A stretch of DNA of 61,246 bases, taken from a virus (lineage: Duplodnaviria; Caudoviricetes). The stretch lies in IMG/VR virus record IMGVR_UViG_3300044251_000017, positions 1 to 61,246 of that record, one strand, 5' to 3'. Made by a program: the position numbers and the translations under genes. Within the stretch, counting starts at the first letter, position 1; every line of letters begins with the position of its first letter. This document shows, in pieces, positions 4,249 to 52,694 of this stretch. Below the pieces are notes generated by a model that worked only from the letters and a program-made list of their open reading frames with translations, was not told the origin of the DNA and ran no database searches.

Positions 4249-4412
4249 GGTCGGCCCCTTCCATCGCTAGTACGGGCGACGGGGGCCGGATGGTGCTTAG
4301 AGCGCCTGTCCGTAGGCCACTTGGAGCGGCAAACGCACGAGTGCCCCGTCTGGCTTGGAACGATGCCAGACGGGGCAGCTCGGGTGATCTGATTACGCGT
4401 TCGATACGCGGT

Positions 4413-4757
4413 TTAGTCGAGATCGTCATCCAGCGCGTGAGGCACCTGGTCGACGATCTCGGCGAGCCAGCCGGGCATCACGTTATGCCGATCCGGCACA
4501 GACCAGGCTTCGCCGCCGAGCATTTTCCCGAACGTGCCATCCTTCTTGATGTTCGGCCCACTCGCGTAGACCCACCGGTCACCGCTACGTGCGTTCGTGA
4601 AGCCCTGACTGCGGTACCGGTCCCACGGCCATCCGTTGATGGCGTCCGTGATCGTGACATAGCGGGCCTCGAATCGACGGCCTCGGGTCTGCTCGATCGT
4701 CGTCGGCGTGTCGAGCAGTAGCTCGGTGACGCGGGTAAGCGGGAGTGCGGAGTCCAT
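4413..4757 (-). CDS. Hypothetical protein
   Basis: AAGGA RBS, phage-like codon use. Confidence 0.7.
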   Translation of the reverse strand: MDSALPLTRVTELLLDTPTTIEQTRGRRFEARYVTITDAINGWPWDRYRSQGFTNARSGDRWVYASGPNIKKDGTFGKMLGGEAWSVPDRHNVMPGWLAEIVDQVPHALDDDLD

Positions 4758-5033: not shown

Positions 5034-5326
5034 GAGCGCGTGTCGCGAGTCAGCTCGACGACGTTGACCGGCACAGCGAGCACGCCGATGGTGCTCGCGT
5101 ATGCCTGCGCCATGGTCGCGTGTGCGGTCGCCTGCGCCCAACACCCCATGGCCTTCTTGCCGAGGTCGTCGCGCAACTCGGCAGCCTGGTGAGTGTCGGC
5201 ATCCGCGTAGTACTGGATCTTGTCTACTGCGCGGATGCCAGCGCGCATGGCGTCCTCGGCAAGACCCATGTGCTGCCAGAAGGCGACGACGAACGGTTCG
5301 GGGCCGATTTCTTCGATTTCGGTCAC
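5030..5326 (-). CDS. Hypothetical protein
   Basis: GTG start with AGGAGAGG RBS. Confidence 0.65.
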   Translation of the reverse strand: MTEIEEIGPEPFVVAFWQHMGLAEDAMRAGIRAVDKIQYYADADTHQAAELRDDLGKKAMGCWAQATAHATMAQAYASTIGVLAVPVNVVELTRDTRS

Positions 5327-5662: not shown

Positions 5663-5691
5663 ATCATACCCCCCAATATAGGGGGATGCAA
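5663..5691 (-). promoter_or_regulatory. Promoter TTGCAT-17-TATGAT with C5-N6-G5 box as spacer
   Basis: TTGCAT ccccctatattgggggg TATGAT. Confidence 0.85.
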
Positions 5692-7489: not shown

Positions 7490-7518
7490 ATGTTACCCCC
7501 CATATTGGGGGGACGCAA
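7490..7518 (-). promoter_or_regulatory. Promoter TTGCGT-17-TAACAT with box
   Basis: TTGCGT ccccccaatatgggggg TAACAT. Confidence 0.85.
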
Positions 7519-7541: not shown

Positions 7542-7775
7542 TCACACGGTCCGACGTAGCCGGACTGCCTTCCGCTCATCGGCGGTCATGCCACCGAACA
7601 CGCCCCACGGCTCGGCGAGGTGGGCGGCCAGGCACTCGTTCGCGACCGGGCACATTCGGCACACGTCCTTCGCCTCGGTCTCCTGGAACTCAAGCAGGGC
7701 GCCGCCCTTGGCCCACGGGAAGAACACCTCGGGGTCAACGTCGCGGCACAGTGCGTCTCGCATCCACTCGTCCAT
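7542..7775 (-). CDS. whiB: WhiB-family transcription factor
   Basis: C..DPEVFFP...CxxCPV..EC...GVFGGMT..ER. Confidence 0.92.
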   Translation of the reverse strand: MDEWMRDALCRDVDPEVFFPWAKGGALLEFQETEAKDVCRMCPVANECLAAHLAEPWGVFGGMTADERKAVRLRRTV

Positions 7776-8335: not shown

Positions 8336-8572
8336 TCACGTGCGGTTGCGGTACGCCTCGGTGCGGCCACCGGTGCGCTGAATCGAGGTCCGGCGCACGG
8401 TGTGCAGCCGGACGGTCTGACCGTCACCCTCATCGAGCATCAACTCGTAGCTACCGTCGGCGTTGATGCCGACGACGGCGTACGTGTCGTGCTGGTCCAC
8501 GAGCGACCCGAAGTAGCTCACGTAGTCGTGAACTGCGGGGTCCTGCTCGTGGGTGGGGCGCGTGTTGGTCAT
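8336..8572 (-). CDS. Hypothetical protein (leaderless)
   Basis: ATG 6 nt after TACGAT. Confidence 0.7.
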   Translation of the reverse strand: MTNTRPTHEQDPAVHDYVSYFGSLVDQHDTYAVVGINADGSYELMLDEGDGQTVRLHTVRRTSIQRTGGRTEAYRNRT

Positions 8573-8578
8573 GGCTCT

Positions 8579-8607
8579 ATCGTACCCCCCATTTTGGGGG
8601 GAGACAA
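8579..8607 (-). promoter_or_regulatory. Promoter TTGTCT-17-TACGAT with box
   Basis: TTGTCT ccccccaaaatgggggg TACGAT. Confidence 0.85.
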
Positions 8608-8611
8608 GAGT

Positions 8612-8641
8612 GGCCGGGCCCCGAGTTTCCGGAGCCCGGCC
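8612..8641. terminator. GC hairpin, probable terminator
   Basis: GGCCGGGC...GCCCGGCC just upstream of the promoter. Confidence 0.55.
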
Positions 8642-8654
8642 AGATCGGCTGCGA

Positions 8655-10577: not shown

Positions 10578-10606
10578 ATCTTACCCCCCGTTCCGGGGGG
10601 ACACAA
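10578..10606 (-). promoter_or_regulatory. Promoter TTGTGT-17-TAAGAT with box
   Basis: TTGTGT ccccccggaacgggggg TAAGAT. Confidence 0.8.
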
Positions 10607-11132: not shown

Positions 11133-11194
11133 AATCTATCCCCCCGATACGGGGGTGTCAACCACTTGCATCCCCCCAATTCGGGGGGTATGAT
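11133..11194. promoter_or_regulatory. Back-to-back divergent promoters, each with a box in the spacer
   Basis: Minus: TTGACA-17-TAGATT; plus: TTGCAT ccccccaattcgggggg TATGAT. Confidence 0.85.
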
Positions 11195-13039: not shown

Positions 13040-13398
13040 GCTTTCGCCTTGGCCTTCTTGGTCTCCCAGTCGGCGACCGCCGCGCACGCCTCGGCCTTGC
13101 TCCCGGCGTTGACGTTCTGTTTTCCGGGGAAGTTCGTGTCTCCGGTGGCGCACATCTTCTTGACCACGTTGACCGCGGTAGCGATCGCCCGGGACTCGGT
13201 CATGCCCTTGGCCTCAAGGTGCTTCTTGATCCGCTTGATGAACTTGGGCAGCCCGCCAGCCTTGCTCACCCAGTTGAACTGTCCCTCGGGCAAGTCAGGC
13301 CAGCCGTCGGCGCGCGCTTCCTCTATGAAGGTGAGGACGAACGCGTCAACAGCCGCCGCGAGTGCGAGGTCTAGCGGCTGGTCGTCTCCGAGAAAGGG
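13036..13398 (-). CDS. Head-associated domain, probably expressed as a -1 frameshift extension of the protease
   Basis: NWVSKAGGLPKFIKRI...AIATAVN domain; no good own start; slippery C CCT TTC at 13398-13392. Confidence 0.6.
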   Translation of the reverse strand, partial: PFLGDDQPLDLALAAAVDAFVLTFIEEARADGWPDLPEGQFNWVSKAGGLPKFIKRIKKHLEAKGMTESRAIATAVNVVKKMCATGDTNFPGKQNVNAGSKAEACAAVADWETKKAKAKA

Positions 13399-15680
13399 GG
13401 CACCACCCCGAGCGCATCGAGCGCGTCCATGCGCCCCATCTCCAGCGCGAGCGAGCGATGGGCGGCGTCGAGCTGTGCGTCCGCCTCGTCCGCCGGCTTG
13501 CGCGCCCAATCGCCGAGCAGGTCCAAGACCAGGGCAGCCACTTTGCGGGCGAGCAGGTCCAAGTCCGTGCCGTCCGGCGAGAACGCCTCGGCGGGCCGTA
13601 CACCACCCGCAGCCACAAGCGCGGTCATCTCGCCCGAAGCGACGCGCGCACGCGTGACCGGGTAGCCCGGCGTGTTGACGGCGAGGCAGGCCACCATCTC
13701 AAGGCCGCCACGCATCGGGCGCCAGTCACCGGACGGCGTGCTCGCGAGCAGTGTCCGGATCTGTCCGTGGGACAGTTCGGGACGGACGAGGCCGTGCACC
13801 CAGATGCCGTGCGCATCCTCGCCGGCAGCCACGTCCGCGGCGGCGAGCGTGACGTTGTCGTAGTGCTTGACCGTCTCGGCGGCCGTGAGTGCGAGCGGCG
13901 CGTGGCCGAGCTCGTCCGCGGACCGACTCATCGTGATGTGGCCGACGGCGGCCGTGCGGACCTGGTCGCCGTCCATGACCCGCATGGCGCCAGTGTTGAA
14001 GTAGGCGTAGTCGCTGCCGGACCGCGGGGGCGGCGTGCACTTGTTGCCGATGCTGATGTGGCACGTCTTCCACGTGGCGATGTGCCCGAAGATCTCGCGG
14101 GTCTTCTCGTTGTAGGTCAGCGGGGTCGGCCCGGTCAGCGCCGGGTCCGTGAAGTACTCCAGTGGTGGTATGTCGGCCGGGCCCGAGGAAGTCACGGCCT
14201 TGGCCGGACCGTTACCTTTCTGCCACGCGGCCGGGATCTTGCTTTCCAGCTTGAGCTTCTTGGCCGCTGCGATGATCTTGGCCTTGGCCTTCTCGGCATC
14301 CGGCCCCTTGAGCGAGCTCGCCCCGGCGATCGCCTTGGCCAGGGTCTTGGCGTCCGTGATCGGCAGCCCGGCGGCCACGCCCTTGGTGAACGGCGGCGCC
14401 CCGGCGAACTCGGCGGCCTCGCACGGCAGGCAGTCATCCCCGAGCTCGGCGGCCCGGAAAGAACTCGCCGTCACGGCCTCGATGCCGCGGGCCTTGAGGA
14501 ACTTGACCAGGTTTTCGATGGTGCGCTCGGACTCGGGCACGATGGCGCCCATCTCGTCCACCATGACCGGCGTGTCGCCGTTGATCTCCACGTAGGCGTC
14601 CGGGAAGGCCGGGATGGCGCACAGCGTGGTGGCAGCGATGACGCCCTTGGTCACCGAGGTCTGGTGGTCCTCGCTGCCGTCCTCGTTGAACAGGATGTCA
14701 TCGGTGTAGTCCACCTCGGACAGGTCGATGCTGTTGCCCGAGAGGTAGCCCTTGAGCGCGAGCTTGCCGCCCTCGGACTCGGGGTCCGCCGTGCCGCGGC
14801 CCTGCCACACGAACGTGCCCTCTGGCATCGCCTCGCCGGTGACTTTCGAGATGAACTCGGGGCCGGGGATCTTCCAAGCCTCATCGAGCTTGCCCATGAC
14901 CTTGGCCTTGGCGTGGCCGCCGTCGCTGCCGGGGTTCTCGGTCTGCGCCAGGACGCTGATCGGCAAGGCGCGCGTGGTCAGCGAGCCGGGCTCGATGAAC
15001 CGGCCGTCTGCGGTCTTGAGGCCCTCGACGGCGAGGCAGGGGAAGAACAGCGACAGTTCGCCGTCCACCTCCTTGATCACCGGTTCGGTCTCGGTCGATG
15101 CGGTCATTTCCATCACTCCGTTCCCTGCGTATCGGCGGTCCGGTACGCCTGCGTCCTCGCCGCGCCACCCGGTCAGCGGAAAGTCGATGTTCTTGCCGCC
15201 GAGCGCCAGGCGGATCGTGGAGAACCGCACCGTGCCCTTGGCCTTGGGCAGCGTGGTTTCCGGCAGCGAGTAGCCGGCGCAGATGTGCGGCGCCCACGGC
15301 GAGAACTGGTCGGGGAACCGGCCCGAGCCGAGCACTTCGCGAGCCACGTCCATCGCGTAGTGGTGCACACCCACCATTGGGTCCGCGGGTGTGAGGGTCG
15401 TGTTGGTGCTCGGCTTGTGCGTGCCGTCCGGGCCGCCGTCGCGGTTCCAGATGGCCGGACCCATGATCTGCGCCTCGATGGGCCCGTTGTCCGCGGCGAT
15501 CTGCATCACGCGCTCGGTGAGCAGCTCCACGGTCGCCTCATCGAGATCCGTCACGTCCTTGCCGAGAAATACGAGGGTGCAGTGGATCTCACCGGCCGGG
15601 TCGCCGCCGGGCACGGTGAACATCCCGGGAGTGTCCGGGATGAGGGCGATCATGCCGCCCGTCTGTCCGTCGTCGGCCAT
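13371..15680 (-). CDS. Capsid maturation protease with N-terminal 2H phosphoesterase-like domain
   Basis: HCTL and PHIC 2H motifs; TADGR...GGH...GNSID...IPAF protease domain; GHIATW..CH, SGDWR, VNTPGYP C-terminal region. Confidence 0.8.
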   Translation of the reverse strand: MADDGQTGGMIALIPDTPGMFTVPGGDPAGEIHCTLVFLGKDVTDLDEATVELLTERVMQIAADNGPIEAQIMGPAIWNRDGGPDGTHKPSTNTTLTPADPMVGVHHYAMDVAREVLGSGRFPDQFSPWAPHICAGYSLPETTLPKAKGTVRFSTIRLALGGKNIDFPLTGWRGEDAGVPDRRYAGNGVMEMTASTETEPVIKEVDGELSLFFPCLAVEGLKTADGRFIEPGSLTTRALPISVLAQTENPGSDGGHAKAKVMGKLDEAWKIPGPEFISKVTGEAMPEGTFVWQGRGTADPESEGGKLALKGYLSGNSIDLSEVDYTDDILFNEDGSEDHQTSVTKGVIAATTLCAIPAFPDAYVEINGDTPVMVDEMGAIVPESERTIENLVKFLKARGIEAVTASSFRAAELGDDCLPCEAAEFAGAPPFTKGVAAGLPITDAKTLAKAIAGASSLKGPDAEKAKAKIIAAAKKLKLESKIPAAWQKGNGPAKAVTSSGPADIPPLEYFTDPALTGPTPLTYNEKTREIFGHIATWKTCHISIGNKCTPPPRSGSDYAYFNTGAMRVMDGDQVRTAAVGHITMSRSADELGHAPLALTAAETVKHYDNVTLAAADVAAGEDAHGIWVHGLVRPELSHGQIRTLLASTPSGDWRPMRGGLEMVACLAVNTPGYPVTRARVASGEMTALVAAGGVRPAEAFSPDGTDLDLLARKVAALVLDLLGDWARKPADEADAQLDAAHRSLALEMGRMDALDALGVVPPFSETTSR

Positions 15681-16003
15681 TAGGCGTCCTCCCACTTTCC
15701 GTTACGCACGAAGCCGTGCCGTCCACAGCTGCACAGGATCGAGGGCTCGACGTGCAACGGGTCAAGTGAGTGGACCTGCCAGCCGGGAGCACCGGGTCCG
15801 CCGGGGAGTGCCATGAAGGTCACGGTTCCCGCGCACGGCTCGCCCTCGGGGATGTGGTTGCCGCCGGATGCCGGGTGCACGTGGAAGAACCCCGCGGGAT
15901 CGACATCGCCGTGCTTGAACAGCCGAGCCCAGTGGCCGCCCCCGAGGTCGATGGCCCCGGCGTCCTTGTTGGCGAGATCGAGCAGGTAGTCAGTCTCGGC
16001 CAT
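15680..16003 (-). CDS. DUF6527-like Cys/His protein
   Basis: W....DPLHVEPSILCSCGRHGFVRNGKW. Confidence 0.6.
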   Translation of the reverse strand: MAETDYLLDLANKDAGAIDLGGGHWARLFKHGDVDPAGFFHVHPASGGNHIPEGEPCAGTVTFMALPGGPGAPGWQVHSLDPLHVEPSILCSCGRHGFVRNGKWEDA

Positions 16004-19889: not shown

Positions 19890-20080
19890 GCCGTGCACCC
19901 CATCTCGGCGAGCAGGCCGCGCCAGGCGGACCGGATGGCGGTGTGTTCGTCCGTGTCCTCGGCGGTCGCCGTCGCGCCGGTGGGGACGTGCACGAGTTCG
20001 ATCTTGATCGTCTTGGCCGTGATCAGCTGCCACGAGGTCGCCCGGCAGTCCTGCGGCTCGGGCCGGGTCACGGTGTCCAC
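19886..20080 (-). CDS. Hypothetical protein
   Basis: AAGGAGG RBS; LVHVPTG motif. Confidence 0.6.
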   Translation of the reverse strand: MDTVTRPEPQDCRATSWQLITAKTIKIELVHVPTGATATAEDTDEHTAIRSAWRGLLAEMGCTA

Positions 20081-20331
20081 TCCTCCTTGGGCTTGCCGTC
20101 GGCGTCCAGCCGGGTGACGCGCAGTCCGTACGCCTCGGCCCCCGGTGTCGGCTCACCGAAAGGGCGCACGGGCCGGGTGCCGCTCGGTGCCGTGATCCGG
20201 GTGTAGGTGGTGTACATGCCGTCCTCGTCCACGATCACGATGACCCATGGCATGTGTGGGTCGTCCGTGATTTTGAAGGCGAGCAGGCCGCCGTCCTCGG
20301 ACATGCGCACGTCGAGTGATCGATCGGTCAT
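20068..20331 (-). CDS. Hypothetical protein
   Basis: ATGA overlap. Confidence 0.55.
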   Translation of the reverse strand: MTDRSLDVRMSEDGGLLAFKITDDPHMPWVIVIVDEDGMYTTYTRITAPSGTRPVRPFGEPTPGAEAYGLRVTRLDADGKPKEEWTP

Positions 20332-20657
20332 GCCGGGACCGGCCAGGGCGAGGTGTTCGTGGCCCACGCGGGAATCCAGCGGGACATGCCACCGCACTTG
20401 CAGCCGCCGGTGGGGGTGACCACGGCGAGGCCCTCGATGGTCTCGAAGTCGATGCCGTTGTTGCGGACCTGCATGTCCGGTTGCGGGGTCTGCGTGAAGT
20501 CGATCTCGGCTTGCCACTGCGGGGTGACGCCGTCCTCGGGCTTGCGAGTGAAGACCTTGAGGCCCTCGTCCGTCGCATAGACACGGGCCCGGTGGATCAC
20601 GGACTTGTCCGGCAGCAACACGGTGGCCGGGAACCATTGCGCGTAGATCAAGGTCAT
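20328..20657 (-). CDS. Hypothetical protein (leaderless, GCKCG)
   Basis: ATG 6 nt after TAGGAT. Confidence 0.7.
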   Translation of the reverse strand: MTLIYAQWFPATVLLPDKSVIHRARVYATDEGLKVFTRKPEDGVTPQWQAEIDFTQTPQPDMQVRNNGIDFETIEGLAVVTPTGGCKCGGMSRWIPAWATNTSPWPVPA

Positions 20658-20663
20658 GGGGTC

Positions 20664-20691
20664 ATCCTAGTCTCTCCCCCTGCAATGGGGG
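20664..20691 (-). promoter_or_regulatory. Offset-box promoter (box 6 nt upstream of TAGGAT)
   Basis: cccccattgcaggggg-agagac-TAGGAT-6 nt-ATG. Confidence 0.65.
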
Positions 20692-20699
20692 TAGATGCA

Positions 20700-20746
20700 G
20701 GAAAGACCCCTGCCGATGCTCAATGAGCGCGGCCCGGGGCCTTTCC
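20700..20746. terminator. Intrinsic terminator
   Basis: GGAAAGACCCC...GGGGCCTTTCC. Confidence 0.7.
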
Positions 20747-20870
20747 TTAACTCGGTTGAGGGAGCGGCGCCAGGGCCCTCGCCTCCGGTATTGCGAGCAG
20801 TCATCTCGGGGGAGAGTCCTACTCGATCACGGACTTGCGGGCCGGGGAACCACTGTCGAACCTCGTAAAG
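20746..20870 (-). ncRNA. Candidate structured ncRNA 1
   Basis: Between box promoter (TAGCTT 20878-20873) and terminator; end-to-end stem plus inner hairpins; no credible ORF. Confidence 0.55.
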
Positions 20871-20872
20871 CC

Positions 20873-20899
20873 AAGCTATCACACCCCCCGTATTGGGGG
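20873..20899 (-). promoter_or_regulatory. Offset-box promoter
   Basis: cccccaatacgggggg-tgtga-TAGCTT. Confidence 0.6.
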
Positions 20900-20902
20900 C
20901 AA

Positions 20903-21370
20903 CTACTTCGCTCCGTCGAGCAGGCTCTTGACCGTCTCGGCGGCCTCGGTGGCGTCGAGGATCTTGTCATCGTCCTCGACACTGTCATCCAGCACGAGCA
21001 CCTTGTCCACAAGGTCGACCACCGCTACACGGAGTTCTTCCGCGGTAGCCGTCATTTCAGCGAACGTCGCGACGGTGGCCGGATTCGAGAACATCGCGAA
21101 CGCCGGCATGGCCGCCCCCGTCACGGTCAGGACAGCGCCGTGCATCTCGCGCAAGGTGTCGTGGTCGCCCCGGCGCTTGGCCTCCTCGGCAAGCTCGGAC
21201 TGCGCGCGGGCACGCCAGGGCCCGCGGCTGGTGGTCGACAGCTCGGACCAGACAGCACTAGTCATGCGATCGAGAGGAGGGACGTTGTAGAACTCGGCGT
21301 ACAGCTGCTCGGCGCGGCGCTCTACGTCCATGGCGGGCACAGTGGCCTCGGGTTCGTTAGGCATGATCAT
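20903..21370 (-). CDS. Hypothetical protein
   Basis: AAAGGA RBS. Confidence 0.65.
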   Translation of the reverse strand: MIMPNEPEATVPAMDVERRAEQLYAEFYNVPPLDRMTSAVWSELSTTSRGPWRARAQSELAEEAKRRGDHDTLREMHGAVLTVTGAAMPAFAMFSNPATVATFAEMTATAEELRVAVVDLVDKVLVLDDSVEDDDKILDATEAAETVKSLLDGAK

Positions 21371-21382
21371 TTCCTTTCGGGG

Positions 21383-21874
21383 TTAGCGGAACACACTCAT
21401 GATCGAACGCCAGATTCGGCGCCACATCGACTCGGGCCACTCGCGCCAGATGCCGACGGCGTCCCACACGGGCTGCTCGGACAGGTGTGCGCCGCGCAGG
21501 CGCCACGAGGTCATGGTGAGCGTCTGGCCGTCATCCTCGGCCTGGAGTAGGTCCACGTCCACGCCGACCCCGAGGTGCTCGTGGTCCAGCAAGTCGCGGT
21601 AAAACCTCGGGTGCGCGGCCTTGAGCATGTCGAGGTTGATCCAGCCGGACGCCTTGAGCACGCTGCCCGAGCCGCCAAGGAACACCTCCTCGATCACGCC
21701 GACGGGCAGCGGCGCACCGGGCGGGTCCGTCACGCTGTAGAGCACGAGCGGCATGCCCATGGTCTGGATGCCGTGCTCGGGCAAGGCGAGGATGCGGTTG
21801 TCCCGGGACATCAGCCCAAGGTGCGCGAGGTCGCCGTGCCACTGGACGATCCGGTAGCCGAGTGAGTGCCTCAC
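21383..21874 (-). CDS. Stand-alone paralog of the head protease domain, probably inactive
   Basis: SRDNR...MPL...VGVIE...GVGVD...QPVW aligns by eye with TADGR...LPI...MGKLD...GNSID...IPAF. Confidence 0.55.
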   Translation of the reverse strand: MRHSLGYRIVQWHGDLAHLGLMSRDNRILALPEHGIQTMGMPLVLYSVTDPPGAPLPVGVIEEVFLGGSGSVLKASGWINLDMLKAAHPRFYRDLLDHEHLGVGVDVDLLQAEDDGQTLTMTSWRLRGAHLSEQPVWDAVGIWREWPESMWRRIWRSIMSVFR

Positions 21875-22026
21875 GCGAGTTCCTTCCAATCTGCGGGCAC
21901 GCCGATCACGAGGCGCTCACCAAGATCGATCGAGTTCACCTCGAAGATTTCGGACTCGGGATCGCACTGGTAGCGGAGGGCCTGCCCATCGGGCGAGCGC
22001 CACACGCGAATGATGCCCTCGGCCAT
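21871..22026 (-). CDS. Hypothetical protein
   Basis: Start/stop overlaps on both sides. Confidence 0.55.
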   Translation of the reverse strand: MAEGIIRVWRSPDGQALRYQCDPESEIFEVNSIDLGERLVIGVPADWKELA

Positions 22027-22409
22027 CACGGCCTCGCAACGATGTCGTAGTGAGCGATCAGGGCGTTGAGCACCTGCGCGGGGGTGTAGGGCTCGGCGGA
22101 CGAGGCGAGCGGTGGGAGCGAGTCCGTGACCCAGTAGAGCGCCTCGGCGTGGCTGACCTTGCGCATCGTCGCACCCTGCGCGGGCTCGGCCGGAACCTCG
22201 GGCAGCACGAGGCCGTCCGGGCTGTCGGTTGGCGCGGCGGGTGTCATCGGAAACCAGATCTTCCGGCCGTCGTCCTCGGCGAGTTCCCACCGCTTACGGC
22301 AGCGTCCGCCGTCGAGCTTGGCCGTGCACTCCCACACCGTGCCGACCTTGAGCGGCCACTTGAGCGGCAAGATGCACTCGTGGGCCTTGGGCAGCTTAAT
22401 GACTCCCAT
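22026..22409 (-). CDS. Hypothetical protein
   Basis: HECILP...GTVWEC...CRKRW. Confidence 0.6.
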   Translation of the reverse strand: MGVIKLPKAHECILPLKWPLKVGTVWECTAKLDGGRCRKRWELAEDDGRKIWFPMTPAAPTDSPDGLVLPEVPAEPAQGATMRKVSHAEALYWVTDSLPPLASSAEPYTPAQVLNALIAHYDIVARP

Positions 22410-22692
22410 GATCAGGTTCCCTCTCCTTTGCACAGTTGCACAGCGGGTCGTCGCAGTCGCATTCCTCGTCCGCCTCGACGTGGTCACACTCGGGGCAGCG
22501 CAAGGCGTCCTCGATGTAGGCGGGCCATCCCTCGCGGCGGGTCTTGCTCGGCGGCGTGTCGGCGTACTCGTGGCACACGCAGTCGACGTGCTGACATCCG
22601 CAGTTCTCGATGAACGACTTGTGCCCGCAGTCGTGGCAGGTGGACAGCTTGTCGAGCTTGCCCTCGATCCAGGTGCCGAGTCCCATGATCAT
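22396..22692 (-). CDS. Cys-rich Zn-binding protein
   Basis: Two CxxCxH...C..C.C units. Confidence 0.6.
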   Translation of the reverse strand: MIMGLGTWIEGKLDKLSTCHDCGHKSFIENCGCQHVDCVCHEYADTPPSKTRREGWPAYIEDALRCPECDHVEADEECDCDDPLCNCAKEREPDHGSH

Positions 22693-22847
22693 TTGACCTT
22701 GTCGCGTCGGGCATCCCGGACGTTTCCGGGGGCGATGCCGCGCGCGGTCGCCATCCGGTCGGCGTCGGTGCGCTGCGCCTCGATGTTCTGGTGGTCAGCC
22801 TTGACCTCGCGCCGCTCGGCGGCCGTGAGGCGGATCCCCTTAGACAT
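22689..22847 (-). CDS. Small basic protein
   Basis: AAAGGAG RBS directly after ncRNA 2. Confidence 0.6.
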   Translation of the reverse strand: MSKGIRLTAAERREVKADHQNIEAQRTDADRMATARGIAPGNVRDARRDKVK

Positions 22848-22864
22848 GTACTGCTCTCCTTTGA

Positions 22865-23022
22865 AGTACCGGCCTTCACGGCGGGGTGGCGACGCGTCCG
22901 AGATTCGCCTACGGAGTGAGAAAGATTCGGCGCTTACCTGCGCCACGCTCCGCTCGGGACCCTGGAGTCTCACTTGGCTGGTGAGTTCGTCGGTGGCCCC
23001 GACCCCGCTGTGAAGTTGTACT
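22865..23022 (-). ncRNA. Candidate structured ncRNA or 5' leader 2
   Basis: Starts at box promoter; long closing helix AGTAC/GTACT, CTTCAC/GTGAAG, GCGGGGT/ACCCCGC, CGACG/CGTCG with four inner hairpins. Confidence 0.65.
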
Positions 23023-23025
23023 CAT

Positions 23026-23054
23026 ATCATACCCCCCATATTGGGGGGACGCAA
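23026..23054 (-). promoter_or_regulatory. Promoter TTGCGT-17-TATGAT with box
   Basis: TTGCGT ccccccaatatgggggg TATGAT. Confidence 0.85.
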
Positions 23055-23057
23055 GCC

Positions 23058-23396
23058 CTAGGCCACCCTGACGCCGGTGTTCGATCGGCCAGGCTGCGAA
23101 CGGTGATGGCGCATCGCCCGGCTCGGCTCGCGCGACAGGTCCGGCACAGCTGCGATCGCCGGCGGGGGCGCGCAGCCCTGGACCGGCTGCCTGGCGAGCC
23201 ACCGGCGCGTCTTGCCGGACGTGCCACCCCAGACGCCGTATCGCTCGTTGTTCGCCAAGGCAAAGAGCAGGCACTCCACCCGCAGGTCGCAGCCAAAGCA
23301 CAGCCGGACCGCGGTGTAGCTCGCGGCGCCCTGCTCGGGGAACCACGTCTCGGGATCGGTCTCCGAGCACAGCGCGGTAGACCGATCGAGGGTCAT
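23058..23396 (-). CDS. whiB: WhiB-family transcription factor (second copy)
   Basis: LCSETDPETWFP...CFGCDLRVECL...YGVWGG. Confidence 0.9.
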   Translation of the reverse strand: MTLDRSTALCSETDPETWFPEQGAASYTAVRLCFGCDLRVECLLFALANNERYGVWGGTSGKTRRWLARQPVQGCAPPPAIAAVPDLSREPSRAMRHHRSQPGRSNTGVRVA

Positions 23397-23650
23397 GGCG
23401 TCTCTCGCAGCGCCTCGGCGATCGCCTCGCCAAGACCTTCGAGCTGATCTCTGGCCATGATGAGAGCAATGCTGCCGCCGAGCGGCAGGTCCGCGCAGTG
23501 CCCGCGCAGGCGCACGAGGTGAAAGCATTCTTCGGACTGGTCCACTCCGGCAGTGTCGATAAAGACCGCACGGCCGCTCTCCACAGTCACCTCGTGCGGG
23601 CAGAGGGCGTGTGCGGGAACGTCGAGCATCTTGCGGTCGTCGGCAGGCAT
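23393..23650 (-). CDS. Hypothetical protein
   Basis: Operonic, ATGA overlap. Confidence 0.6.
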   Translation of the reverse strand: MPADDRKMLDVPAHALCPHEVTVESGRAVFIDTAGVDQSEECFHLVRLRGHCADLPLGGSIALIMARDQLEGLGEAIAEALRETP

Positions 23651-23662
23651 GATGATCTTCTT

Positions 23663-24076
23663 TCAGATGGGGTGCGGCAGCTTCGCGAGCGCCGGACCGT
23701 TGATGGCTTCGATGCTCCACAGCGCCAGCGTGGTGCCGTAGACGCCGTAGCGGTCCACGAGTTCGTCCCGGGCGACCTCGGCAAGGTCGCGGTTGTCGTC
23801 CGGCCAGACGAGGAACTCGATCAGCGTGCCCGAGAAGTCCGCACGGTAGGCCTCGCGGTCTTCCTCCTCGTAGCGCGTCCAGTCCGTGTACGTCCCGGAC
23901 ACCGGCTTGCCACCGAGCGCCTCGGGCGGCAGGTCGTAGGCCGCCTCGCTTTTGTGGTTGCGGACCGGCTTGGCCTTGGTCGCCTCGGTGATCTTGGCGG
24001 CGATGACGCGGCGGACCTGCCCCGACTTCCGGGGCTTGGGCCGCCGCGCCGTCTTCCGCCGTCGCTTGGTGGTCAT
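23663..24076 (-). CDS. Hypothetical protein with basic N-terminus
   Basis: ATGA overlap. Confidence 0.65.
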   Translation of the reverse strand: MTTKRRRKTARRPKPRKSGQVRRVIAAKITEATKAKPVRNHKSEAAYDLPPEALGGKPVSGTYTDWTRYEEEDREAYRADFSGTLIEFLVWPDDNRDLAEVARDELVDRYGVYGTTLALWSIEAINGPALAKLPHPI

Positions 24077-24348
24077 ACCAGCCGTGCTCGCTGCTCGTCC
24101 GGCAGGTAGTTGTTATGCACCCACCGGTCCACGCGCGCGCTCCACGTCTCGTTGGCGGCGTTGCCGTGGCCCAGGTAGATCCGGATGCCCAGCTCGACTA
24201 CGTCCACTTTGAGTTCGAGCAGCTCGCCGTCGACAACGTGACTGGCGTACGTCTGGCATTGCGCGAGTTCCGCGCATCCGATGCGCATCTCCTCAGTGGG
24301 CGTTGCGTCGGCATACTGCGCGAGGGTGTACTCGTCCCGGTAGGTCAC
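24073..24348 (-). CDS. Hypothetical protein
   Basis: GTGA overlap. Confidence 0.6.
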   Translation of the reverse strand: MTYRDEYTLAQYADATPTEEMRIGCAELAQCQTYASHVVDGELLELKVDVVELGIRIYLGHGNAANETWSARVDRWVHNNYLPDEQRARLV

Positions 24349-24674
24349 GCGAACACCCCCGACAACGCCTCGATGTCCTCGGGCAGGGCGCGAAACTCGT
24401 CCGGGTAGCGGTAGGCGTAGCGGTCGTAGCTCGCCATGGGCAGCACGTCGGACTCGGCCGTGAGCGCCCATAAGTCCGAGGCGTCCTTGACGAACACGAC
24501 CACGTAGGCACCTCGCCACGTCTGCCCGTTGAGGATGTCGTCCACGATGACCACGCGGGCCTCGTCCGCCTTGTCGTTACGTCCGGGGTCCGGCGTGCAG
24601 TCGACGCCGTCCTTGGTGTACTGCCACGCCCACGTCTGGCCCTCGGGTGCCTGGTCGATGATTCGATCTTGCAC
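24345..24674 (-). CDS. Hypothetical protein
   Basis: GAGGAGG RBS after box promoter. Confidence 0.7.
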   Translation of the reverse strand: MQDRIIDQAPEGQTWAWQYTKDGVDCTPDPGRNDKADEARVVIVDDILNGQTWRGAYVVVFVKDASDLWALTAESDVLPMASYDRYAYRYPDEFRALPEDIEALSGVFA

Positions 24675-24701
24675 TAGCCCTCCTCGTCTCGATGTCCTCG
24701 A

Positions 24702-24730
24702 ATCATACCCCCCGAATTGGGGGGACGCAA
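24702..24730 (-). promoter_or_regulatory. Promoter TTGCGT-17-TATGAT with box
   Basis: TTGCGT ccccccaattcgggggg TATGAT. Confidence 0.85.
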
Positions 24731-24733
24731 GAT

Positions 24734-25006
24734 CTACCAGCCGACCGGCAGCCGGAACGTCAGGTTGTGCGTCACCGAACCGTCCACGAGCACATCGCGC
24801 GCGTAGTCCGGCACGTTGGCGTAGAACCGGGCCATCGTCCCGCTGTAGAGCACCTCTCCCCCGGTGAACTCGGCGGGGAAGACCAGCACTCCGTCATCGA
24901 GGCACGTCACCTCGGCCTGGTGTCCGGGCAGCGCGTTCATCATTTCGTGCGACCAGAGCTGTCCCTCGCGAGCGGGCAATGTCCAGCTGATCGGCATCCA
25001 TTCCAT
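24734..25006 (-). CDS. Hypothetical protein
   Basis: GAGGGGG RBS. Confidence 0.55.
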   Translation of the reverse strand: MEWMPISWTLPAREGQLWSHEMMNALPGHQAEVTCLDDGVLVFPAEFTGGEVLYSGTMARFYANVPDYARDVLVDGSVTHNLTFRLPVGW

Positions 25007-25029
25007 GCAAGCCCCCTCGGGCAGTAAGG

Positions 25030-25064
25030 CGGGCCGGACACCCACGGGAGAGGTGTCCGGCCCG
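25030..25064. terminator. GC hairpin
   Basis: CGGGCCGGACACC...GGTGTCCGGCCCG. Confidence 0.6.
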
Positions 25065-25072
25065 AGCTGTGG

Positions 25073-25240
25073 TCAGGCCCGCTTGCGGCGGTTCTGCTCG
25101 CCCTGCGCGTAGGTGAGGACCTTGGTCCGGATGAGGGCGGCCTTGGGGCCGTCGGTCGCGAGTGAGGCTTGCGCGGCGGTGATGCCGGTCGCGAGGTTCT
25201 GGTCCGAGGTGCCAGCGAAGGTGTTCGTCTTTGTGGTCAT
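25073..25240 (-). CDS. Small protein (leaderless)
   Basis: ATG 6 nt after TATGAT. Confidence 0.65.
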   Translation of the reverse strand: MTTKTNTFAGTSDQNLATGITAAQASLATDGPKAALIRTKVLTYAQGEQNRRKRA

Positions 25241-25246
25241 ACCCAA

Positions 25247-25275
25247 ATCATACCCCCCAATACAGGGGGACACAA
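25247..25275 (-). promoter_or_regulatory. Promoter TTGTGT-17-TATGAT with box
   Basis: TTGTGT ccccctgtattgggggg TATGAT. Confidence 0.85.
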
Positions 25276-25321
25276 CCTGGCAGGCGAGTGAATCTCTCCC
25301 CTTTTCTCAGGTACGTCTTAT

Positions 25322-25348
25322 CCCCCAATACAGGGGGTCGGATACGCT
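25322..25348 (+). promoter_or_regulatory. Offset-box promoter of the transfer-like operon
   Basis: cccccaatacaggggg-tcgga-TACGCT-6 nt-ATG. Confidence 0.7.
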
Positions 25349-25354
25349 TAGGCG

Positions 25355-25591
25355 ATGAGGATACGAACCGTCATCGCGCTTGCCGCCGTCATCGCGGTCG
25401 GCGTCTCGATCACGACCGGGGACGCGGTACTCGCGGCCGGGGTCATCGTGCTGTACGTGGTCCAGCTGTTCATTCGCGACGCGGTCCAACGGCGGTCCCG
25501 CGAGGACGCCTGGAACGCGGTCCGCTACAACGTCATGTCGTCGGACATCGATCCAGCAGCCCGGTGGTCTCGTCGGGGCGGTGATGAGTGA
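25355..25591 (+). CDS. Small 2-TM membrane protein (leaderless)
   Basis: Two hydrophobic helices; first gene of plus-strand operon. Confidence 0.65.
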   Translation: MRIRTVIALAAVIAVGVSITTGDAVLAAGVIVLYVVQLFIRDAVQRRSREDAWNAVRYNVMSSDIDPAARWSRRGGDE

Positions 25592-26019
25592 TGCCGATCG
25601 CCAACTACACCTCCGAGGTGAGCGCGGTCCGGTCCGCCGACGAGATCCAAAAGATGCTCGTGCGGACCGGGGCACGCGGGGTGGTCCAGGAATACAACGA
25701 GACCGGTCGCATGGTCTCAATGTCCTTCACCATCGTGCGGTCCGGGACCACGATGGGCTTCACGCTGCCAGTGAGGTCCGAGGCGGTCCGCCAGGTGCTC
25801 ATCCGACAAAAGGTCCCGCGCAAGTTCCAGACGCTCGTACACGCAGACCGCGTCGCCTGGCGCATCCTGCGGGACTGGATTCGCGCGCAGATGGCGATCA
25901 TCGAGACGGAGATGGTCTCGATCGAGCAGGTCATGCTTCCGTACATGCGTACAGATGATGGCTCCACGGTGTTCGAGCGCTACGAGACCACGCGGGCGTT
26001 GCCTGCGGGGAAGGTCTGA
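25588..26019 (+). CDS. Conserved-looking phage hypothetical protein
   Basis: NYTSEV...EIQKML...RVAWRILRDWIRAQ...LPYM. Confidence 0.75.
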   Translation: MMPIANYTSEVSAVRSADEIQKMLVRTGARGVVQEYNETGRMVSMSFTIVRSGTTMGFTLPVRSEAVRQVLIRQKVPRKFQTLVHADRVAWRILRDWIRAQMAIIETEMVSIEQVMLPYMRTDDGSTVFERYETTRALPAGKV

Positions 26020-28773: not shown

Positions 28774-28860
28774 GTGCGCTCGTCTCACGGTCGCAGGTAT
28801 CAGCGCCCGTACGTAACGTGCGCAGACGGGTGAGATCATCCGCGATTTGAGACGATCAAG

Positions 28861-28877
28861 CCCCCTGAATCAGGGGG
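28861..28877. promoter_or_regulatory. Box variant CCCCCTGAATCAGGGGG
   Basis: C5-N7-G5 palindrome downstream of traB. Confidence 0.6.
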
Positions 28878-28905
28878 ACAGAGTGTACTAGACGGTACAA
28901 ACAGA

Positions 28906-28948
28906 GGCCCCGAACCCGGACGAATCTCATCCGGGTTCGGGGCTTTCT
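28906..28948. terminator. Intrinsic terminator between convergent operons
   Basis: GCCCCGAACCCGGA...TCCGGGTTCGGGGC-TTTC. Confidence 0.8.
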
Positions 28949-28954
28949 CGTTGA

Positions 28955-29326
28955 TCACGCCTTGCGTCGTGACTTCCGTGGGCGCGCCTCGACACGAGAC
29001 CAGCGGTCCAGCGCCTCGCGGCCCCTGTCGTTGAGCAGGAGGGAGGTCGGCCGGTCCAGCGCGGCGTCATACTCCCCTGCCCGTTCGGCCGTGCTGGTCA
29101 AGTACCGGTGCAACGCCAGGTCACGCAGCGCGCCGGTCAAGTCCGGGTCCACCAATTCGAGGTCGCCAAGGCTCGGCTCGTAGGTGAAGGTGCCGCGGAT
29201 GTCCGGGATGCCCGGCACGAGCACGAGCTCGTGCTCGGCGACCAGGCGCAGCGCGGCCAGCCGGCGCCTGGTCTTGACCAGGGCGAGGTGGTCGTCCACG
29301 TACGGGCGCTTCTCGATGTCACTCAT
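28955..29326 (-). CDS. Hypothetical protein
   Basis: GAGGAGG RBS. Confidence 0.65.
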   Translation of the reverse strand: MSDIEKRPYVDDHLALVKTRRRLAALRLVAEHELVLVPGIPDIRGTFTYEPSLGDLELVDPDLTGALRDLALHRYLTSTAERAGEYDAALDRPTSLLLNDRGREALDRWSRVEARPRKSRRKA

Positions 29327-33048: not shown

Positions 33049-33077
33049 ATGCTACCCCCCATAACGGGGGGACGCAA
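33049..33077 (-). promoter_or_regulatory. Promoter TTGCGT-17-TAGCAT with box
   Basis: TTGCGT ccccccgttatgggggg TAGCAT. Confidence 0.85.
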
Positions 33078-47995: not shown

Positions 47996-48024
47996 ATCAT
48001 ACCCCCCATATTAGGGGGATGCAA
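47996..48024 (-). promoter_or_regulatory. Promoter TTGCAT-17-TATGAT with box
   Basis: TTGCAT ccccctaatatgggggg TATGAT. Confidence 0.85.
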
Positions 48025-52183: not shown

Positions 52184-52212
52184 ATCGTACCCCCTGTAAT
52201 GGGGGGACACAA
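52184..52212 (-). promoter_or_regulatory. Promoter TTGTGT-17-TACGAT with box
   Basis: TTGTGT ccccccattacaggggg TACGAT. Confidence 0.85.
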
Positions 52213-52225
52213 GAGAGGACACGCC

Positions 52226-52585
52226 GTGAAGCCTGCCAAGGTCAATTGGAAAAAAGTCCGAGAGTTCCTGCTCACACGGTCAGAGGGATACTGCGAGGTC
52301 AGCGGCCGAGTGCTGGACCCGGCCACGTTCGACGTGCACCACCGCCGGAACAAGGGCATGGGCGGCACCACGCGGCCCGACCGGGACGCGCTGTGGAACC
52401 TGCTCGCGCTCGATCCCGCCACTCACAACGCGGCCGTTCGCGGCGAGCGCAGCGTGCACGGCAGCACCACGTGGTCGAATCCGTGCGGCTACCTGCTCTG
52501 GCAGACCGAGGACCCCGCCGTCCGCGAGTTCCTCTTGCACGGCCGCGACTGGGTGAAGATCGGCCCCGACGGCCTCTACCTGTAG
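52226..52585 (+). CDS. HNH endonuclease-like protein
   Basis: RSEGYCE, HHRRNKGMGG, NLL.L...H. Confidence 0.75.
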   Translation: MKPAKVNWKKVREFLLTRSEGYCEVSGRVLDPATFDVHHRRNKGMGGTTRPDRDALWNLLALDPATHNAAVRGERSVHGSTTWSNPCGYLLWQTEDPAVREFLLHGRDWVKIGPDGLYL

Positions 52586-52590
52586 ACGCA

Positions 52591-52634
52591 GAAACGCCCG
52601 GTGACCCCTTCCGCAAAAGGTCACCGGGCGTTTC
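52591..52634. terminator. Bidirectional intrinsic terminator
   Basis: GAAACGCCCGGTGACC...GGTCACCGGGCGTTTC. Confidence 0.8.
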
Positions 52635-52694
52635 CGGGAGAACACCATGCCTGCCACACGGTCCCCACGAGGGGGTTGAGTGAAGTGTAACTCG

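Follow-up and report, generated by a model that had tools for sequence, protein, structure and literature searches.

The message of a small phage gene appears to begin with a long, folded 5' leader, and we suggest that this leader derives from an insertion and acts constitutively. We hold this reading with about as much confidence as doubt. The gene encodes a basic protein of 52 amino acids, and the folded stretch (minus strand, 23022–22865) lies directly ahead of it. The favoured course of events would be as follows. The message would start from one copy of a repeated, early-type promoter box which normally gives leaderless messages. In this lineage about 150 nt of DNA would have been inserted between the start site and the start codon, with a 13/14 inverted repeat near the ends of the insert and GTAC on either side of it. 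Once transcribed, the insert would fold into a closed domain which starts some 4 nt past the 5' end and in which a stem of 13 bp closes off three hairpins. The Shine–Dalgarno (SD) sequence and the AUG would stay single-stranded, so that translation of the 52-aa gene would be SD-led rather than leaderless. The consequence would be constitutive, either an altered message stability and translation rate or a neutral change, and no signal would be sensed.

The phage and the genes around the folded stretch

The window, that is the whole stretch of DNA analysed here, is a complete IMG/VR virus record of 61,246 nt with a GC content of 65–69%. It encodes a terminase, a portal, a major head protein, a tape measure protein, a DnaB-like helicase and an FtsK-like protein. 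From these structural and replication genes together with two WhiB-like genes we conclude that the window is, judged by its gene content, a tailed phage of an actinobacterium. The two WhiB domains are encoded on the minus strand at 7566–7766 and 23199–23381 (67.7 and 64.5 bits, PF02467). The terminase is at best 32–36% identical to those of cultured phages (Rhodococcus, Gordonia and Mycobacterium phages), and thus the phage has no cultured relative. At the DNA level blastn found no match to the window in a collection of 50,697 phage records, with 20 kb of the window also used as query. We note in passing a 774-aa protein (13371–15695, minus strand) whose C-terminal part matches portal, head-protease and structural PHROGs and whose residues 8–175 match the 'RNA ligase' PHROG phrog_2659 (E 1.2e-17).

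On the minus strand the folded stretch is situated between the stop codon of a WhiB-like gene (23058) and the ATG of the 52-aa gene (22847). The genes are:

23058–23450, minus strand: WhiB-like transcription factor gene, upstream (Pfam PF02467, E 1.4e-16; PHROG WhiB families; domain at 23199–23381)
22689–22847, minus strand: gene of the 52-aa basic helical protein (GC3 at least 0.9; homologs)
22396–22692, minus strand: gene of a Cys-rich 98-aa protein, downstream; ATGA contains both its start and the stop of the 52-aa gene; counterparts by synteny exist in the related loci G001 and G004

Three helices are predicted for the 52-aa protein (pLDDT 72.7). It matched no Pfam or PHROG family, and its best score in a Protein Atlas search, 0.78, lies under the level often reached by shuffled proteins. 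Among 5.8 billion proteins it has three close homologs (P0002–P0004) of 81–88% identity, which are encoded on contigs of up to about 60 kb. Homologs of the protein are 50–53 aa long and carry no N-terminal extension. Searches for close relatives of the gene gave no match in the IMG/VR, metagenome and genome contig collections. On its composition and its homologs, the 52-aa gene is a real gene. Its 98-aa neighbour gave no match in IMG/VR contigs nor, with tblastn, in the phage records, and for the 153-aa neighbour G001 was the sole match in IMG/VR contigs.

The folded stretch itself is non-coding, since it lacks the GC3 periodicity of the flanking genes. Its GC3 is 0.67–0.77 (23060–22850) compared with at least 0.9 in the WhiB gene and the 52-aa gene. 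Two coding readings were rejected. A 38-aa frame from the ATG at 23025 has G or C at only 19 of its 38 third positions and begins upstream of the likely transcription start. An in-frame N-terminal extension from the GTG at 22973 has a GC3 of about 0.69, and the homologs of 50–53 aa are without it; a search with the extended 94-aa frame through the leader returned only the same four proteins as the 52-aa query.

The promoter box and the start of the message

Directly behind the WhiB-like gene, whose stop codon is 3 nt before the -35 hexamer, lies the promoter box. The earlier note had seen here a strong box promoter followed by AAAGGAG and the gene of a 52-aa basic protein, and we find this arrangement as described, with AAAGGAG at 22862–22856 and the open reading frame at 22847–22689:

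23026–23054, minus strand: promoter box with -35 TTGCGT, a C6-AATAT-G6 palindrome as spacer and -10 TATGAT (pattern and BLAST)
23019, minus strand: putative transcription start, an A 7 nt past the -10 box (by analogy with leaderless boxes, 8 of 12 in this phage and 21 of 29 in IMG/VR)
22848–23019, minus strand: predicted 172-nt 5' untranslated leader of the 52-aa gene (folds; no GC3 periodicity)

With a loose pattern (TTGyrT, C5-6, 4–6 nt, G6, TAnnAT, the C/G palindrome filling the spacer) the box is found in 12 copies in the phage, five of them within 3 mismatches of the copy at 23026–23054. The copies are located at 5663–5691, 7490–7518, 8579–8607, 10578–10606, 11133–11161, 11166–11194, 23026–23054, 24702–24730, 25247–25275, 33049–33077, 47996–48024 and 52184–52212. 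A phage regulator might use the C/G palindrome as its operator. Eight of the 12 boxes are leaderless, in that an ATG 6–8 nt past the -10 box, with its A as nucleotide 7–9, opens an open reading frame of at least 57 codons with a GC3 of at least 0.8. Two other boxes have SD leaders of 27 and 37 nt, and one further copy is divergent. At the box considered here 178 nt separate the -10 box from the ATG. This is the sole long leader among the 12, and the spacer is six times any other leader behind the box promoters in the phage. The same box also occurs in 16 other IMG/VR phage records (24 loci), where 21 of 29 scorable boxes are leaderless.

By analogy with the leaderless boxes we infer that transcription starts near A23019. 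With such a start, the AGU of the outermost helix, AGUAC/GUACU, would fall outside the RNA. This helix is therefore probably in part upstream of the transcription start.

Predicted fold of the transcribed strand

The minimum free energy (MFE) of 23022–22865 is -72.5 kcal/mol (z -3.74), and none of 200 dinucleotide shuffles is as stable. For the 172-nt leader (23019–22848) the corresponding values are -70.8 kcal/mol and z -2.68, a stability which 2 of the 200 shuffles reach. The complementary words which the earlier note had named are all present on the minus strand, and some of them pair as it proposed. The MFE fold is a multi-branch domain in which the stems AGUAC/GUACU, CUUCAC/GUGAAG and GCGGGGU/ACCCCGC enclose three hairpin arms, and the hairpins CUCAC/GUGAG and GGCGC-AGGUAA-GCGCC are formed. 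The proposed helix CGACG/CGUCG and the hairpins CUCC/GGAG and UCCG/CGGA, however, are not used as described. Ensemble pairing probabilities are near 1 for the closing stem and for both main hairpins. Two elements within or next to this domain concern us further:

22918–22945, minus strand: predicted terminator-like hairpin UGGCGC-AGGUAA-GCGCCG, -10.1 kcal/mol, with a weak U-rich tail AAUCUUUCUC
22856–22862, minus strand: Shine–Dalgarno sequence AAAGGAG, in the loop of a small GUACU/AGUAC hairpin in the predicted ensemble

Six of the seven positions of AAAGGAG are unpaired with a probability of 0.86–1.0 and the last one with 0.51. The first two bases of the AUG are unpaired with probabilities of 0.94 and 0.83 and the G with 0.25. 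The leader is thus predicted to consist of a closed multi-hairpin domain (23015–22874) followed by an open translation-initiation region. A conformational switch had been suggested from the alternative pairing AGUGAGA/UCUCACU. This helix exists, but enforcing it costs the fold 5.3 kcal/mol, and it has an ensemble probability of about 0. The SD is mostly unpaired and nothing is masked. As a competing fold and SD sequestration are both absent, nothing predicts a switch.

What does hold is the simpler suggestion of a leader. The stretch is non-coding, reaches from a consensus promoter to the ribosome-binding site and precedes a real gene on the same strand, as a structured, SD-led 5' untranslated region (UTR) does. 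The U-tract behind the terminator-like hairpin contains 5 U in 10. In the region of small early genes at 20000–26000 terminator-like hairpins are enriched, with 11 found and 2.3 expected from shuffles.

Comparison with the rest of the genome and with the opposite strand

With a phage so rich in GC, shuffling is not a strict control, and therefore a comparison with the rest of the genome was added. When fixed windows of 158 nt were taken every 20 nt and regressed on GC (n = 3055), 22861–23018 ranked 326th on the minus strand and 50th on the plus strand. When local structures of 120–170 nt were collected with RNALfold, non-overlapping and with ends optimised everywhere (n = 978), the minus-strand structure 23023–22863 ranked 238th and its plus-strand counterpart 19th. 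The plus strand folds with -80.6 kcal/mol and 8 G.U pairs, the transcribed strand with -72.5 kcal/mol and 3 G.U pairs. The fold thus beats its own shuffles, but it is ordinary against the rest of the genome. In our view the fold is real but not outstanding, and ordinary on the transcribed strand. The symmetry of the strands, together with an A.C mismatch on the RNA strand (see below), argues for a DNA inverted repeat rather than for a fold shaped on the RNA. We note, however, that an RNA under selection would beat its own shuffles just as this one does (z -3.7 and -2.7), and this counts against the favoured reading.

Elsewhere in the genome some segments fold far better for their GC content (ranks 1–6 of 978). 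These are 8491–8650, 5147–5271 and 4327–4474 on the plus strand as well as 52565–52729 and 28819–28985, each of the latter two on both strands. The latter two resemble bidirectional or operon-end terminators, and the locus at 28.8–29.0 kb is between convergent genes.

An inverted repeat within GTAC flanks

The stretch contains a single long complementarity, a 14-nt inverted repeat with 13 of 14 matches whose arms are 114 nt apart. The one position which does not match reads A.C in the transcribed strand, G.U in the opposite one. GTAC is found on both sides of the repeat, at 23021–23018 and 22869–22866, the arms starting 2 and 4 nt further in.

23002–23015, minus strand: 5' arm of the inverted repeat, CTTCACAGCGGGGT
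22874–22887, minus strand: 3' arm, ACCCCGCCGTGAAG, 13/14 complementary to the 5' arm
22866–23017, minus strand: candidate inserted segment of about 152 nt between GTAC 23021–23018 and GTAC 22869–22866 (putative boundaries)

The GTAC-flanked segment looks like an insertion of the MITE type (miniature inverted-repeat transposable element) with a duplication of 4 bp, as far as its sequence goes. Excision of 23017–22866 in silico leaves TATGAT-atgaGTACttcaaaggagagcagtac-ATG. This corresponds to an SD leader of 26 nt, which resembles the leaders of 27, 31 and 37 nt at other box promoters. Repeats of 13/14 quality occur at 20 loci of the genome (22 when counted by start bins), 7 of them with loops of more than 50 nt. 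Ten shuffled genomes had 3–11 such repeats each, and the real genome is about threefold above them. On the scale of the genome, chance alone can give a 14-nt repeat of this kind, and it can likewise give the 4-nt GTAC flanks.

The homologous loci

Parts of the locus occur in four sequencing runs, none of them listed as an RNA run, which we compared over 22600–23200. Run X1 is identical to the window over the locus and is its probable source. Runs X2 and X3, which belong to one study, contain contigs of a sister phage (59,687 nt in X2 and 2,930 nt in X3). The flanks of the sister phage are about 95% identical to the window, with differences at 5 of 91 letters on one side and at 8 of 175 (X2) or 11 of 175 (X3) on the other. 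Between these flanks 335 nt of the window (22691–23025), that is the leader and the gene, are replaced by 163 other letters. The leader-plus-gene module is more than 20% different from the sister phage, against about 5% in the flanks.

The length of 163 nt can be split into approximately 6 + 156 + 1, which stand for a few leader bases, some 52 codons and the first base of the stop, so that a long leader would not fit. By this arithmetic the allele of the sister phage would be essentially leaderless. An excision between the two GTAC, on the other hand, predicts 183 nt, made up of a 26-nt leader and a gene of 52 codons. Since 163 nt do not agree with 183 nt, at least one of the two proposals, the leaderless sister or the GTAC excision, must be incomplete. 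The same mismatch together with the divergence of the module (above 20% compared with about 5% in the flanks) leads us to the view that, on the sequences compared, the locus owes its present form at least partly to a swap of leader and gene as one module at the conserved promoter box. Such a swap is an alternative to a simple insertion.

More distant loci, found through the promoter pattern, add to this picture. G001 (60,525 nt) is syntenic. It has a WhiB gene (44% identity), the box promoter, a leader of 31 nt and a 50-aa homolog (55%). Behind these come a small gene for a Cys-rich protein and then one of 148 aa, homologous to the 153-aa gene of the window (40%). Its leader, tccgaGGTACccgcgagagagtgagcaccac, carries a single GGTAC at the place equivalent to the GTAC of the window. 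In G004 the WhiB gene directly overlaps the Cys-rich gene, and there is neither a promoter nor a small gene in between. The unit of box promoter and 52-aa gene is hence seen as an accessory module (L041/G004 1417–2791 compared with 22026–23450 of the window and with L033 1063–2188). G001 and the window both carry this module with leaders of different length.

The folded element is absent from all three homologous loci examined, the sister phage, G001 and G004. Therefore covariation cannot be shown from these loci. As both the outgroup and the sister are without the element, its gain in the lineage of the window, or in the donor of the module, is the simpler history. The window, the sister phage, G001 and G004 all differ from each other, and so the slot is highly variable, with the folded stretch in the window only. 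The contigs which encode P0002 and P0004 (81–88% identity) might carry the element.

Searches for further copies and for related RNAs

The earlier note had considered a new phage RNA family or a processed RNA. At gathering thresholds none of 4227 Rfam models matched anywhere in the window, and this includes the ribozyme models. In E-value mode the only match of 22780–23080 was a spurious one to a mammalian lncRNA model, by way of the promoter palindrome (11 bits, E 8.7). BLAST against the phage's own genome revealed no second copy, only the promoter part being repeated, and against the 16 related phage records it gave merely two 19-nt matches. A pattern of the paired arms was found 0 times in IMG/VR and 0 times in 185,579 species genomes. 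Its one match in JGI metagenome contigs (L008, 994–1138) was rejected as an assembly artefact, a fold-back contig end in an aminotransferase-like gene. The phage and plasmid collections contain no match to the element. In the four runs no other contig matched the arms, and parts of the interior had short matches of about 81–86%; in the likely source metagenome, one contig of 368 nt matches 35 interior letters (22942–22976) at about 86%.

We also searched 324 kb of related loci with a single-sequence covariance model (R1). It recovered itself, its own reverse strand and one match of 15.6 bits in L029. This match has many broken pairs and overlaps a promoter palindrome on the opposite strand, and was discarded. 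No tRNA or tmRNA was found, and nothing supports the reading of the stretch as a CRISPR repeat, a retron or a tRNA-like structure. Since these searches revealed neither an Rfam match nor a second copy nor a structural homolog, the idea of a new RNA family finds no support. Taken together, the observation of a folded stretch is confirmed in part, and of its interpretations the structured leader is supported, whereas a new family, a processed RNA and a switch are not.

Alternative explanations

It could be argued that the stretch is a dedicated cis-regulatory leader. Its ligand might be a metabolite or a protein of phage or host, such as the 52-aa product, or the leader might respond to temperature; in another variant the GGCGC hairpin and its U-rich tail would form an attenuator and control how much transcription continues into the 52-aa gene and those downstream of it. 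Such a leader would explain why only one of the 12 box promoters has a long leader, why the fold is more stable than its shuffles, and why it is multi-branched with a long closing stem. The terminator-like hairpin inside, in an early region where such sites are enriched (11 against 2.3 expected), would fit too. However, a leader missing from three homologous loci is not an old, conserved control of the 52-aa gene. The SD and the AUG are open, the alternative helix is 5.3 kcal/mol worse with a probability of about 0, the U-tract with 5 U in 10 is weak, Rfam gave no match, and the fold of the transcribed strand does not stand out in this genome. We thus regard a dedicated regulator as unlikely, if worth keeping in mind.

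A second possibility is that a non-autonomous, MITE-like mobile DNA element was inserted at GTAC in a short leader and that the fold is a by-product of its terminal repeats. Presence in one and absence from the other of two phages about 95% identical is what a mobile element would give. The 13/14 inverted repeat 2 and 4 nt inside the GTAC flanks, a structure at least as good on the non-transcribed strand, and the 26-nt SD leader restored by excision, which compares well with the leaders of 27, 31 and 37 nt, all agree with it. But no second copy was found in the own genome, the 16 phage records, IMG/VR, 185,579 genomes, the JGI metagenomes or the phage and plasmid collections. Nor does the likely source metagenome contain another match to the arms, its one interior match being 35 letters at about 86%. 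Chance could by itself account for the inverted repeat, and likewise for the 4-nt flank, and no transposase partner is known. We consider this explanation rather unlikely.

The stretch may also be nothing special, an ordinary spacer brought in when a leader-plus-gene module was swapped at the promoter box, with such pairings as 65% GC gives. A genome-wide place of 238th among 978 for the transcribed strand and an inverted-repeat count only about threefold above shuffles are in line with this, and 335 nt differing throughout by more than 20% between flanks differing by about 5% are the signature of a module swap. Yet z values of -3.7 and -2.7 against shuffles and a length six times that of any other leader behind this box type in the phage speak against an ordinary spacer, and we deem it improbable.

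Very improbable in our judgement is a free-standing small RNA of about 95 nt acting in trans on phage or host messages, from the consensus promoter directly upstream to the GGCGC hairpin (-10.1 kcal/mol, with its U-rich tail about 95 nt downstream), as this tail is poor as a terminator, the 13-bp closing stem requires sequence past the hairpin, relatives do not conserve the element and Rfam has no match to it.

It would take good fortune for a more far-reaching reading to be right, namely that we see for the first time an orphan mobile or horizontally traded RNA module of about 150 nt of soil actinophages, or a new class of regulatory leader of an unsampled branch. As a mobile module it could land in GTAC at the starts of early messages, by which a gene with no leader or a short one would gain a capped, SD-led leader. 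As a new class of leader it could belong to a branch such as the phages bearing P0002 and P0004.

Relation to known systems

Bacterial MITEs, the miniature inverted-repeat transposable elements, are multi-copy by definition. The element resembles them in its size, in the inverted repeats near its ends, in a possible GTAC duplication, in folding strongly on both strands and in being co-transcribed with the neighbouring gene. Terminal inverted repeats and a presence/absence polymorphism at a conserved site are seen here as they are in MITEs. Unlike MITEs, however, the element is present in a single copy and has no known parent IS element.

In leaders of the riboswitch or attenuator type we find the same position between promoter and ribosome-binding site, a multi-branch fold and an internal terminator-like hairpin. 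The leader of the 52-aa gene differs from them in that it matches none of the 4227 Rfam models and has no competing fold, no SD sequestration and no conservation.

Structures at the 5' end can protect messages from 5'-end-dependent decay, and the leader of E. coli ompA is an example of a long structured 5' UTR with a stabilising stem–loop. The predicted leader has in common with such stabilisers a stable structure a few nucleotides from the 5' end which is followed by an accessible SD. It is different in being recent, not conserved and placed at a promoter that is otherwise leaderless. An insertion-derived, constitutive leader would act, if at all, on message stability or translation. In M. 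smegmatis, one study reports, the 5' UTR of a message influences its transcription as well as its half-life and translation (PMC7148126).

The nearest analogues described so far are the MPME elements of mycobacteriophages, which belong to the ultra-small mobile elements known from actinophages. According to the description of MPME1, it has 439 bp with an inverted repeat (IR-L) and is present in some and absent from other near-identical Cluster G phages (PMC3029335). As these elements are described there, our element is like MPME1 and MPME2 in being a small insertion with inverted repeats at its ends and in its presence or absence in close relatives. The MPME elements are found in or between genes at several sites, whereas the element of the window is about 150 nt rather than 439 bp long, has no open reading frame, is single-copy and is located in a 5' leader. 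Members of the MPME family are recognised by a size of about 439–440 bp and by sequence similarity; the element has about 150 nt and no blastn match in the 50,697 phage records.

Significance

The present evidence opens no new class of RNA. If the favoured reading of an insertion-derived, constitutive leader is true, the locus would be a natural experiment in which the same early gene is read from the same box with three forms of leader: essentially none in the sister phage, 31 nt in G001 and 172 folded nt in the window. Such a series would be of use for the study of leaderless versus SD-led translation and of message stability in Actinobacteria, and for the study of phage mosaicism at conserved promoter boxes. 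More generally useful than the leader may be the leaderless promoter box with its C6/G6 palindrome, which occurs in at least 16 other IMG/VR records.
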